The notes beneath the pieces were generated by a model, which was given only the letters and a program-made list of their open reading frames with translations, was not told the DNA's origin and searched no databases. Below, one piece after another: positions 17,484 to 62,060 of a DNA stretch of 64,000 nt. How positions within the stretch are numbered: the stretch's first letter is position 1; each line of letters starts with the position of its first letter. The translations under genes and the position numbers were made by a program. Source of the DNA: Fidelibacterota bacterium (GTDB lineage: Bacteria; Fidelibacterota; UBA8477; JABMPR01); NCBI GenBank assembly GCA_016784025.1, contig JADHVL010000001.1:73753-137752 (forward strand). The letters run 5' to 3'.

Positions 17484-17660
17484 GGACATTGAGCATGCCT
17501 GCACTGAGCGATGTCGAAGTGTCGAAATGTCTTGGACCTTGGCATGATACCCTCCGACTTCGAGAGCCTCAGTCTCCGAAATCCCCTGGACATTGAGCTC
17601 GTCGAAATGTCCTTTGCCCTGGTGATTTCCTCTCCGACTTCGACAGGCTCAGCCTCCGAA
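17484..17660. repeat. Array of small hairpin repeats with conserved TGAGC(T/C)(T/C)GTCGAA core, in alternating orientation
   Basis: Units: 17484-17531 (GGACATT..ATGTC, expanded loop), 17556-17574 (reverse core TTCGAGAGCCTCA), 17588-17612 (GGACATT GAGCTCGTCGA AATGTCC, 7-bp stem), 17638-17652 (reverse core CTTCGACAGGCTCAG). Confidence 0.65.
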
Positions 17661-60033: not shown

Positions 60034-60984
60034 TTGAAATCGATAATTAGAAAAGTTCTATTGGGACTGCTTGTAAGTATTTTCATGTTTTCATGTGGGG
60101 AGAAGGAGATAGCGTCTAAGAACATTGAATCAGATAACACCCACACAATTGCCTATATCGGTTATTCCTCCACCAATCCCTTCTGGAATGCACTGGCGTC
60201 AAGTGCACAGGAGTCTGCTAAATCGCTGAATGTCAAGTTTTTAGACTTGACCGCTTCAACCCCTGAAATGGCCCAGCAGAAGATGGCAATTGATAATGCC
60301 ATTATCAAACGAGTGGATGGGCTTGTAGTTGGGGCGGTGGATTCAAGAGGGTTGGGAGACTCATTTGATAAAGCGCAAAAAGCTGGTATCCCAATTGTCA
60401 CCGTAGATACGCGAGTCGACCATCCTGCCGTTGTGAGTCATATTGCCACTGACAATATCGCTGCAGCCCGCCTGGCTGGTGAATTCATCGCAAACAAGCT
60501 TAACAATAAGGGCAAAGTTCTGGTACTTGGCGGATCAACTGGTTCACAAACTGCCGATGATCGTCAGAAAGGTGTTGAAGAGATTCTTGAACAGCACGAG
60601 GGAGTGGAGGTGATATTCAGAGTCGCCAATTGGGATGCCAAACAGGCCAATGAAATCACCAATAATATTTTGAGTTCACATGATGATCTGGGTGCTGTTT
60701 TCGCAGCCTGCGACCCCATGATATTTACGGCCATGCAGGCAGTGAAAAGCAAAGAGATGCTAGGTGATGTTGTGTTGGTCGGGTTTGATGCAATTCCCGC
60801 CGTGCTCAAGGCCATTAATCAAAACGAGATTGATGCTACTGTACGTCAGGATCCAGGTCGAATGGGTCTAGAAGGCGTAAAATTATTGGTGAGTCATCTC
60901 AATGGTGAACAAACTCCTGCATACATCCCCATTTCGGCAGAAATAGTGCATCATGAGAATATCAAGGAATACATTTCTCAATAA
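60034..60984 (+). CDS. Sugar ABC transporter substrate-binding lipoprotein (RbsB-like)
   Basis: 316 aa. TTG start 7 nt after AAGGAG. Lipobox MFSCG. IAYIGYSSTNPFWNAL... and VDGLVVGAVDS are typical of periplasmic-binding-protein type I sugar binders. Confidence 0.75.
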   Translation: MKSIIRKVLLGLLVSIFMFSCGEKEIASKNIESDNTHTIAYIGYSSTNPFWNALASSAQESAKSLNVKFLDLTASTPEMAQQKMAIDNAIIKRVDGLVVGAVDSRGLGDSFDKAQKAGIPIVTVDTRVDHPAVVSHIATDNIAAARLAGEFIANKLNNKGKVLVLGGSTGSQTADDRQKGVEEILEQHEGVEVIFRVANWDAKQANEITNNILSSHDDLGAVFAACDPMIFTAMQAVKSKEMLGDVVLVGFDAIPAVLKAINQNEIDATVRQDPGRMGLEGVKLLVSHLNGEQTPAYIPISAEIVHHENIKEYISQ

Positions 60985-61238
60985 AGTTTTATAACTCAAA
61001 GGTCAACGAACCAAATCAAGTGGATAATTCTACTCAAATATGATTCTCAGATCGGAACCTGTGAATCTATATGCTCCATCCGGAAATACATTTTCACAAA
61101 ACGATACTAAGATGAGAACTGTGTCAAAATAATGTCAAAGAATATGGCATGTGGTGGCGTGAAATGTCTCAAAAAGTGCCACTGTGTGCACTAGCATATC
61201 AGCGTGTTAATGACACCTAAGTTATTGTAAAACAAGAG

Positions 61239-61325
61239 CGGAGAGGGAGGGATTCGAACCCCCGGTACCCGAAGGTACGCTGCATTTCGAGTGCAGTGCA
61301 TTCAGCCGGACTCTGCCACCTCTCC
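61239..61325 (-). tRNA. tRNA-Ser (anticodon CGA), class II with long variable arm
   Basis: The reverse complement reads GGAGAGG-TG-GCAGAGTCCGGCTGAATGC-A-CTGCA-CTCGAAA-TGCAG-CGTACCTTCGGGTACC-GGGGG-TTCGAAT-CCCTC-CCTCTCC-G. All four stems pair, the T-loop is TTCGAAT, and CCA is not encoded. Confidence 0.9.
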
Positions 61326-61327
61326 GA

Positions 61328-61358
61328 GCAAAAGTTCATACTGCGTATGAACTTTTGC
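61328..61358. other. Perfect 14-bp hairpin abutting the tRNA 5' end
   Basis: GCAAAAGTTCATAC (61328-61341), loop TGC, GTATGAACTTTTGC (61345-61358). It lies 2 nt from the mature tRNA 5' end. There is no U-tract on either strand. Confidence 0.6.
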
Positions 61359-61403
61359 GAGTCACGTCGTAGCTCGTTAGAGCGAAGACGGACAAAAAAA
61401 TAT
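61355..61403. repeat. Copy 1 of a ~47-nt direct repeat containing a conserved imperfect hairpin
   Basis: TTGCGAGTCA CGTCGTAGCTC gtta GAGCGAAGACG GACAAAAAAATAT (hairpin 61365-61390). Confidence 0.6.
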
Positions 61404-61440
61404 TTACAAAGAACGAAACTCCTACCTGCGGTAAGACCAA

Positions 61441-61487
61441 TTGCGAGTCACGCCGTAGCCTGCAAGGCGAAGGCGGACAACAAATAT
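61441..61487. repeat. Copy 2 of the ~47-nt direct repeat
   Basis: TTGCGAGTCA CGCCGTAGCCT gca AGGCGAAGGCG GACAACAAATAT (hairpin 61451-61475). Confidence 0.6.
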
Positions 61488-61565
61488 CAAAAAAACGATG
61501 AACCTACAACTCAATAAAAATAAGCTCTATCAGGCAACAACGCCTTAAGAATCGAGATATAGCTT

Positions 61566-62060
61566 TTACTTACGGGTCGCCTTAAAAAAACTATCCAAAA
61601 TGCCCTTGCATTTGCTCTCAAGTATCCCACCGATAATTTCAACTTTGTGATTAAGGAATTTTCCTGAACAAAGTTGAACCGCACCCCCGCAACCTCCATG
61701 TTCATGGTCATCAGCACCAAATACCACCTTGGGAATCCTGGCATTCAGAATAGCCCCAGCACACATGGGGCAGGGTTCCAGGGTCACATAAATGGTTGCA
61801 TCCTTCAAACGCCAATCCTCAATGTGATTGGCAGCGGCTGTTATCGCCAGAATTTCTGCGTGGGCCGTAGGATCCTTGAGAGATTCGCGCTGATTGTGGC
61901 CTTTGCCAACGATCTGATTGTTCAAAACCACCACGGCTCCAACTGGAACTTCCTTGCGAGCAAATGCTTTTTCTGCTTCTCTAAAGGCCTGTTCCATCCA
62001 ATGTGCATGGGAATCAGTGTTTAAGAGGGAAATGCCTTGAGTATCTTGATCCATATCCAC
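61566..62060 (-). CDS. tadA: tRNA adenosine(34) deaminase
   Basis: 164 aa. HAEILAI and TLEPCPMCAGAI zinc-binding CDA motifs, with typical TadA size and layout. Confidence 0.85.
   Translation of the reverse strand: MDMDQDTQGISLLNTDSHAHWMEQAFREAEKAFARKEVPVGAVVVLNNQIVGKGHNQRESLKDPTAHAEILAITAAANHIEDWRLKDATIYVTLEPCPMCAGAILNARIPKVVFGADDHEHGGCGGAVQLCSGKFLNHKVEIIGGILESKCKGILDSFFKATRK

Follow-up and report, generated by a model that had tools for sequence, protein, structure and literature searches.

What is the duplicated hairpin that lies between the genes for tRNA-Ser(CGA) and tadA in this genome? The two copies are found in a 64,000-nucleotide stretch of contig JADHVL010000001.1 from a Fidelibacterota bacterium (GCA_016784025.1; positions 73,753 to 137,752, hereafter the window), and a first, sequence-only reading had described them as a 47-nt repeat whose paired base changes are the signature of a selected RNA or single-stranded DNA structure. 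Our best explanation, to which we assign a probability of about 0.55, is that the locus is a decayed, tandemly duplicated relic of a selfish palindrome that targets tRNA genes, lodged in the leader of pre-tRNA-Ser. The two copies would then derive from one member of a family of ~32-40-nt imperfect palindromes, duplicated locally in tandem; the family is restricted to this lineage, and its members are here called E.

The hairpin and its family

Both copies are present where they had been placed and fold as proposed. The 19-nt left part of the element, TTGCGAGTCACGYCGTAGC, occurs exactly twice in the window versus no occurrence in 100 shuffles, and the described hairpin is formed by both copies on either strand, with energies of -17.2 and -17.6 kcal/mol on the plus strand (z -3.9 and -3.2) and -14.0 and -17.1 kcal/mol on the minus strand. 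Copy 1 reads GTC-A-CGTC-GTA-GCTC-gtta-GAGC-GAA-GACG-GAC and copy 2 GTC-A-CGCC-GTA-GCCT-gca-AGGC-GAA-GGCG-GAC; the three double, compensatory differences between them and the conserved GTA/GAA loop were correctly described. The 11-position hairpin is real as well, but its stem is longer, with a GTC/GAC extension and a bulged A adding three pairs. Similarly, the 47-nt sequence is indeed duplicated, but it is part of a real unit of ~86 nt, arranged in tandem, in which each element is accompanied by a second hairpin with a TGC loop (B1 in one unit and its counterpart B2 in the other) and by an A/T-rich tail; the two units are 71% identical overall. Hairpin B1 lies 2 nt from the 5' end of tRNA-Ser and is an inverted copy of the tRNA-proximal leader. 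The statement that no annotated gene explains the repeats needs qualifying, as tRNA-Ser(CGA), on the minus strand, lies 30 nt from them on one side and the end of tadA, on the same strand, 86 nt from them on the other. On the tRNA's own strand the repeats are located upstream of tRNA-Ser, with tadA as the upstream neighbour, and the strand that carries the purine mismatches (GTA/GAA) is the plus strand, antisense to the tRNA.

Relatives of the hairpin that keep its structure and carry compensatory changes occur elsewhere in its own genome and, in related species, at the orthologous locus (in the following, G000 denotes the own genome, other G numbers related genomes, and C numbers contigs). 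A relaxed search of the whole assembly returned ~20 further hairpins with a CGTAG-stem-loop-CGAAG core, usually following (T/C)TGC-CTG. When the structure of the sequence-only reading was imposed on an alignment of 15 sequences, 87.8% of the cells were paired and 8 of the 11 pairs changed on both sides; none of 500 shuffles matched the observed values, and sliding the partners gave only 25-41% pairing. A covariance model, R1, was built from 15 look-alike hairpins of the own genome and misses the forms of E with long loops. It gave 64 matches in that genome at an E-value ≤1, 47 of them at ≤0.02, and, at ≤1e-4, 1-32 matches in every other species of the genus (22 in all), 6 in its sister genus and 0-1 in each of 17 genomes further out. 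The family is confined to these two genera. Many matches fall at contig ends, as expected of dispersed repeats. On the purine strand, the consensus of E is C(C/T)TGTC-N-CGYC-G(T/A)A-G[stem-loop]C-G(T/A)A-GRCG-GA. The G.A and A.G mismatches, which had been proposed to be conserved positions, are invariant across the family, with G and A fixed on both arms of the internal loop and the middle base being T or A regardless of pairing (GTA/GAA 20, GTA/GTA 11, GAA/GTA 5, GAA/GAA 4). Generic hairpins with a GTA/GAA 3x3 loop show no excess (30 versus 10-54 in permuted-loop controls), and the specificity of E is that of the CGWAG core and its flanks, not of the loop alone. A search of all GTDB genomes for the pattern GTCGTAG-N7-16-CGAAGACGG gave, among the matches listed, only chance ones in high-GC genomes.

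E is also found nested inside another E and in the loop of another palindromic family, GGACATTGAGC...TCGAAATGTCC. The window contains a hairpin array of the type GGACATTGAGC-(YYG)-TCGAAATGTCC at 17484-17660, in both orientations and with a stem closed by tandem G.A/A.G (UGAG/CGAA); positions 17588-17612 are a short form of the repeat that hosts nested E elsewhere in the genome. A sub-family with different flanks, GGATAAT-CSCGR-CGTAG...CGAAG-NYGG-ATAA, occurs in tandem at G000:C26:74449-74600 and C16:140893-140933. Three other candidates were tried and rejected: a terminator, because neither strand carries a T-run; an archaeal-type bulge-helix-bulge intron, because the two 3-nt loops lie opposite each other and are not staggered; and the attachment-site repeats of an island, because the repeats lie on the 5' side and are without tRNA-Ser sequence.

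The hairpin is under constraint, but covariation alone does not imply an RNA: complementary stem changes are also typical of palindromic DNA repeats such as the sub-families of repetitive extragenic palindromes (REPs; PMC3733652). The stem of copy 1 is the variant of the orthologous E of G005 and that of copy 2 the variant of the orthologous E of G009; the three compensatory changes are thus two variants of the family and not recent paired mutations. What we find is one locus of a dispersed palindromic repeat family, most probably not a stand-alone RNA gene. It is very improbable that the hairpins belong to one or more plus-strand small RNAs with a purine-purine, protein-binding motif akin to loop E/sarcin-ricin, as had been preferred. 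In favour of such RNAs, the plus-strand fold is slightly more stable, the G.A and A.G positions do not vary, and on the purine strand G.T exceeds A.C (18 versus 8, p 0.08), an excess biased by the model that was used to collect the copies. As in loop E, G.A and A.G oppositions flank a U-A within a helix, but the likeness fails in that the loop of E is a symmetric 3x3 one, has no bulged G and accommodates T-A, A-T, T.T and A.A in the middle. A scan found no sigma-70-like promoter or terminator on the plus strand at the locus, and cmscan of 60900-61700 against Rfam (E-value ≤10), a check that had been suggested, returned only the tRNA and sub-threshold noise; there was no Rfam match at 12 other family loci either. 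A plus-strand RNA would moreover be antisense to the tRNA leader, would come from a repeat of ~47 copies dispersed over many contexts, and would have to be reconciled with unstranded RNA contigs that run continuously from tadA to the tRNA. The place of the element between a putative -10 box and the tRNA favours the minus strand, and the mostly antisense orientation of the family towards adjoining tRNAs and genes (24 of 30) also counts against a plus-strand RNA.

E and tRNA genes

The genomic distribution of E links it to tRNA genes. Among the 47 copies of the own genome (E-value ≤0.02), 44 are intergenic and 14 lie within 250 nt of a tRNA gene versus 0.35 expected (P~3e-18), so that 12 of 45 tRNA genes are touched. 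Twelve of these 14 copies are antisense to the tRNA; between co-directional protein genes, 12 copies are antisense versus 4 sense, which brings the overall bias to 24 of 30 (p 0.0014). Many copies are located between convergent protein genes or downstream of tRNAs. The concentration near tRNA promoters, together with a CGWAG that is directly repeated on both arms of an otherwise palindromic frame, could suggest a duplex DNA site for a regulator or a nucleoid protein that acts on tRNA promoters. We give this idea very little credence: the stems vary freely provided that they stay complementary, which is unexpected for duplex recognition, the loop and the spacing between the two CGWAG motifs range from 9 to >40 nt, and the copies between convergent genes or behind tRNAs are out of place.

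A notable arrangement is seen upstream of the own genome's tRNA-Pro-GGG, Ala-GGC, Ala-CGC, Arg-ACG, Arg-CCG and Val-CAC, where E splits a partial copy of the 5' end of the same tRNA. The junction, which reads ...TAGCT^E'^CAGTTGG... on the tRNA strand, falls at or beside T12/C13; the partial copy breaks off after 17-30 nt, with the intact tRNA 6-120 nt further downstream. The same junction occurs in related species upstream of tRNA-Met, Asp, Arg(ACG), Phe and Val, as well as in an Arg(TCT)-like fragment whose fetched stretch contains no intact tRNA, and the tRNA-Met of G020 is preceded by two tandem 84-nt units. At tRNA-Arg(ACG) of related species, the partial copy and its inverted copy track each species' own tRNA sequence. 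Partial copies of the 3' end are found downstream of tRNAs (G001:C226, G013:C20), and there E is in sense orientation. We found no published description of such a tRNA stub-plus-hairpin arrangement in the literature on tRNA fragments with palindromes and on GIY-YIG with tRNA in bacteria.

Some further features of these genes deserve mention. Most tRNA genes of the own genome carry TATATT followed by (C/G)CGCGCTTTT, a promoter-like sequence, 10-20 nt before the tRNA 5' end. At G000:C4:29100-29230, the leader of tRNA-Pro(CGG) has, immediately after the promoter box, 10 nt copied from the tRNA 5' end (CGGGGTGTGG) and also contains a degenerate half E, a setting that looks like an older, more decayed case of the same arrangement. 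About 14 of the 47 elements have a core GTA-GCTC-loop-GAGC-G that resembles a tRNA D-arm (U8 A9 G10 C11 U12 C13 ... G22 A23 G24 C25 R26) with a shortened loop, and E might be descended from a D-arm hairpin.

The history of the present locus can be followed by comparing the tRNA-Ser(CGA)/tadA spacer across 17 related genomes. Six species (G004, G011, G007, G006, G014 and G002) have an empty site: the spacer is short, and the tRNA immediately follows the -10 box. This conserved motif, (c/g)aatataaa(t/a), lies 12-40 nt from the tRNA and is TATATT-like on the tRNA strand. This box is kept in the 17 related genomes (at the G013 locus the fetched stretch ends at a contig end just past it), is located upstream of E where E is present, and resembles the TATATT box of the own genome's other tRNAs; its likely counterpart in the window is listed in the table below. 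E is present in 11 species, always between the box and the tRNA. In G018, G012, G020 and G003, one flank of E is CCACCTCTCC, an exact 10-nt copy of the tRNA-Ser 5' end placed at the normal distance from the box; the opposite flank holds, in three of these four, a fragment of the tRNA-Ser D-loop. The G018 junction is exactly G10^C11, and the target is neither lost nor duplicated. The tRNA-derived flanks are decayed in G009, G008, G021, G005, G023 and the own genome. At our locus, no recognisable tRNA-Ser copy is found in the flanks of the elements, and CAATTG, on the left of copy 2, looks like a remnant of an antisense tRNA D-loop. In all species with decayed flanks except G005, the tRNA adjoins a perfect hairpin that consists of an inverted copy of the tRNA-proximal leader: hairpin B1 is shared with G009, and G008, G021 and G023 carry other perfect hairpins in this position. 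DNA metagenome contigs from related populations include forms that skip 190 or 295 nt (matched over short sides with a likeness <95%), a faint hint that is consistent with populations carrying one copy or no copy.

Based on the above data, we propose that E is, or was, a selfish, site-specific mobile DNA that enters tRNA genes, its hairpin being recognised in single-stranded or cruciform DNA. The tRNA genes would survive such entry because the tRNA end is duplicated in the process. A plausible recogniser is a small GIY-YIG nuclease of the UPF0213 type, some genes of which are bracketed by E next to tRNAs. At tRNA-Ser(CGA), the duplicated unit comprises E and the leader-derived perfect hairpin, and the tRNA-derived flanks have decayed; the tandem copies would have arisen via unequal recombination between repeated unit sequences. 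The element would be transcribed from the minus strand along with tRNA-Ser, within the leader of the precursor, and removed upon RNase P cleavage. As for the constraint on the hairpin, we favour DNA-level recognition for spread over an RNA-level function in the leader.

Such a leader function nevertheless has to be weighed. The location of E between the -10 box of tRNA-Ser and the tRNA makes the minus strand the most likely transcribed strand and places E in the pre-tRNA leader; the repeats most likely form a structured 5' leader of pre-tRNA-Ser, judging from sequence and folding. Folding of the minus-strand leader gives four clean hairpins ahead of the tRNA (z -2.9). The spacer is found in full, at 100% identity and joined to both tadA and the tRNA, in two metatranscriptome assemblies, one of which has a 126-nt contig over hairpin B1 and copy 1 at ~4x the depth of tadA; these contigs are unstranded, cover the region as RNA or as contaminating DNA, and their depth is a poor measure of RNA level. 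It could be imagined that E, whatever its origin, has been exapted as a cis-acting RNA structure of tRNA precursors and is kept by selection, its UUC/UAC-loop stems (on the tRNA strand) and the perfect hairpin at the 5' end controlling processing by RNase P, III or E, stability or transcription. Its constant place at the orthologous locus would fit, as would hairpins that stay intact, with compensatory changes, in 11 species as the neighbouring sequence decays, the strong hairpin that abuts or includes the tRNA 5' end in G009, G008, G021, G023 and the own genome, and the orientation bias with respect to transcription. We nonetheless regard an exapted RNA as unlikely. Six congeners do with a short, unstructured leader; E occurs in both orientations in tRNA transcripts, being sense in the 3' fragments (G001:C226, G013:C20 and G008:C104); it is also found between convergent protein genes and nested in other repeats; and its invariant purines sit on the strand that is mostly not transcribed.

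Candidate mobilisers and known systems

As to what might move E, a first possibility is that it is a REP-type element, GTAG- or CGTC-tagged, moved by a REP-associated tyrosine transposase (RAYT) or an IS200-like Y1 transposase. E resembles REPs and bacterial interspersed mosaic elements (BIMEs; Di Nocera et al. 2013, PMC3733652) in being a 30-40-nt, GC-rich, imperfect palindrome that is intergenic, lineage-restricted and present in tens of copies, 47 being at the low end of REP family sizes. Stem-complementary sub-families, CGTC and GTAG strings, frequent co-transcription with neighbours and clustered units repeated together with flanking DNA are further shared traits, and the own genome has Y1_Tnp genes, as do 19 of the 23 genomes of the genus. 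However, the hairpins that flank the own genome's two Y1 genes belong to other families; at 31 Y1 loci of the genus, R1 reached at most 29 bits, versus 38-52 for true copies, and none of these matches bracketed a gene. E counts do not follow Y1 counts either (rho 0.21, p 0.35), and on these grounds we rejected the RAYT/IS200 link. Structurally, G(T/A)A lies within the stem on each arm, with 4-7 further pairs beside it, and GTAG faces GAAG instead of forming an unpaired terminal tag. No RAYT gene is flanked by E, E is tied to tRNA genes and partial tRNA copies, and the head-to-tail tandem seen here is rare among REPs. Overall, a REP origin is improbable. At G000:C29:61600-62500, a weak Y1-transposase-like open reading frame (ORF) is found amid several CCAGGATTCGAATCCTGG-type palindromes that resemble tRNA T-arms; these are a different repeat family, perhaps a REP set of its own.

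The gene arrangements suggest that small GIY-YIG genes are better mobiliser candidates than the Y1 transposases. These ORFs encode 79-90 aa (Pfam GIY-YIG), and their nearest solved relatives are the UPF0213 proteins 1zg2 and 1ywl and, distantly, SLX1. At G000:C14:11158-11742, tRNA-Arg(CCG) is followed by E', a 90-aa GIY-YIG ORF, a repeat of the tRNA 3' end and a second E', both copies of E being strong. On either side of the ORF is a 109-nt direct repeat; the two are 92% identical and open with the last 10 nt of tRNA-Arg(CCG) and an E hairpin; the outer E stem is built from the tRNA's own TACCA end, and a further E sits in a tRNA-Arg 5' stub upstream of the tRNA. At G000:C47:149320-149830, a 79-aa GIY-YIG ORF follows tRNA-Leu(CAA) between 128-nt direct repeats that start at the tRNA 3' end and whose termini pair as an E-type stem with a ~100-nt loop; this arrangement is kept beside tRNA-Leu(CAA) in at least five species of the genus (the own genome, G009, G005, G015 and G011). 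In G008:C104, tRNA-Ser(TGA) is followed by E-ORF-E-ORF-E, with E in sense orientation. Altogether, a GIY-YIG gene adjoins or is bracketed by E on C14, C47 and C9 of the own genome and on G008:C104, but not at the tRNA-Ser(CGA) locus, and a tRNA is nearby at 9 of 18 GIY-YIG ORF loci examined. Of note, the majority of the own tRNA genes are without encoded CCA, and Arg-CCG and Leu-TAA, whose 3' ends are fused to an E-like hairpin, encode it.

We tentatively suggest, at odds clearly below even, that E and the UPF0213-type mini GIY-YIG nucleases constitute an undescribed, structure-guided homing system, in which lineage-specific hairpins are paired with a phylum-wide nuclease family. The nuclease would recognise, on the one hand, the hairpin or cruciform with its G.A mismatches and, on the other, conserved DNA of the D-arm (or T-arm) in tRNA genes. 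E would enter at the fixed T12^C13 position, and repair would duplicate the tRNA end, so that a promoter-proximal stub precedes an intact gene; perfect hairpins beside E, which are inverted copies of the flank, would be scars of fold-back repair. A comparable case could be SegB of phage T4, a free-standing GIY-YIG homing endonuclease at tRNA genes. Seg systems and E have in common small GIY-YIG genes beside tRNA genes and local duplication of tRNA sequence. They differ in that the present ORFs, of 79-90 aa, are catalytic domains of the UPF0213 type that lack a DNA-binding domain and in that Seg systems are not known to have a hairpin partner.

Other mobile elements that use tRNA genes can be compared in the same way. 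Integrase-borne genomic islands insert in tRNA genes, regenerate an intact gene and leave a partial copy. Unlike them, E is not accompanied by an integrase, inserts tens of nucleotides instead of kilobases, acts on the 5' and not the 3' side, and has its hairpin within the partial copy. E also departs from a MITE (miniature inverted-repeat transposable element), being itself a single palindrome, and at the G018 junction no target bases are duplicated. The tRNA-linked repeats (TLRs) of E. coli (Egan & Landy 1978; Rudd 1999) are located downstream of the tRNA and carry 18-19 nt copied from its 3' end (PMC8144298). Like E, these are units within tRNA transcription units that hold a copy of the adjacent tRNA's terminal nucleotides, can be amplified in tandem and mostly lack a known function. 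The copy linked to E, in contrast, is one of the 5' end (10-30 nt), lies upstream and is split by a hairpin, as seen in relatives and at other tRNAs; the C14 cassette of the own genome, with its repeated 10 nt of the tRNA-Arg 3' end, is the closer analogue of TLRs. E is closest to REP elements and to the E. coli TLRs, and fully matches neither.

Several observations weigh against a selfish, tRNA-targeting palindrome. Transcript-level selection could equally give the antisense bias. At the present locus the hairpins are intact while the tRNA-derived flanks have decayed, which could mean selection at the RNA level, and in the species with decayed flanks a strong hairpin always abuts the tRNA 5' end; the G.T excess, biased as it is, points the same way. 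We saw no identical solo copies at unrelated loci, which would be the sign of recent transposition. The mobilising enzyme and the mechanism are what we infer from the arrangement of genes and repeats, and the model leaves unexplained the step that creates the first partial tRNA copy. As to the nuclease, the numbers of E copies and of GIY-YIG genes show a weak correlation across the genus (rho 0.45, p 0.03), which is confounded by genome completeness; small GIY-YIG genes occur throughout the phylum, far beyond the range of E; and only about half of those in the own genome have an E-like hairpin within 400 nt. For these last three reasons, the link to the nuclease is put forward in conditional terms.

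Features of the locus and their meaning

Features of the tRNA-Ser(CGA)/tadA locus, in window coordinates
Feature	Position	Strand	Basis
tRNA-Ser(CGA) gene	61238..61325	-	ARAGORN; Rfam tRNA, 54.7 bits
Two tandem ~86-nt units	61326..61498	-	Direct repeats spaced 85-86 nt; alignment; minus-strand fold
Hairpin B1, perfect 14-bp inverted repeat GCAAAAGTTCATAC / GTATGAACTTTTGC, 3-nt loop	61328..61358		Inverted-repeat search; minus-strand leader fold
Element copy 1	61355..61395 (hairpin proper 61361-61393)	+	Model R1, 47.5 bits, E-value 1.3e-7; fold
Hairpin B2, 7-bp stem, TCCTACC-tgc-GGTAAGA	61420..61436		Terminator-like scan match; unit alignment; fold
Element copy 2	61441..61480 (hairpin proper 61447-61478)	+	Model R1, 47.9 bits, E-value 1.1e-7; fold
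tRNA-Ser promoter -10 region (putative)	61512..61521	-	Plus strand caataaaaat; tRNA strand ATTTTTATTG
tadA-like tRNA adenosine deaminase gene	61566..62060	-	ORF; Pfam MafB19-deam, dCMP_cyt_deam_1

Apart from these features, the genome, that of a marine-metagenome bacterium, encodes proteins with tails of the type IX secretion system (T9SS).

A structured small RNA becomes very improbable at this locus, and the case illustrates that clean compensatory changes between two copies can stem from a palindromic DNA repeat family. For annotation, it matters that stubs and hairpins alter tRNA leaders and, with so many copies at contig ends, that E stubs and hairpins break metagenome assemblies. For the biology of the lineage, the E family would represent a recurrent and orderly invasion of essential tRNA genes without their inactivation, with a recurring pattern: one fixed D-arm position of a dead, promoter-proximal stub holds the hairpin, and downstream of it a working gene is regenerated. 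If the link to the GIY-YIG nucleases is true, it would provide a function for the widespread UPF0213 proteins and an explanation for the long-unexplained tRNA-linked repeats, and E would represent a new class of self-healing mobile DNA.

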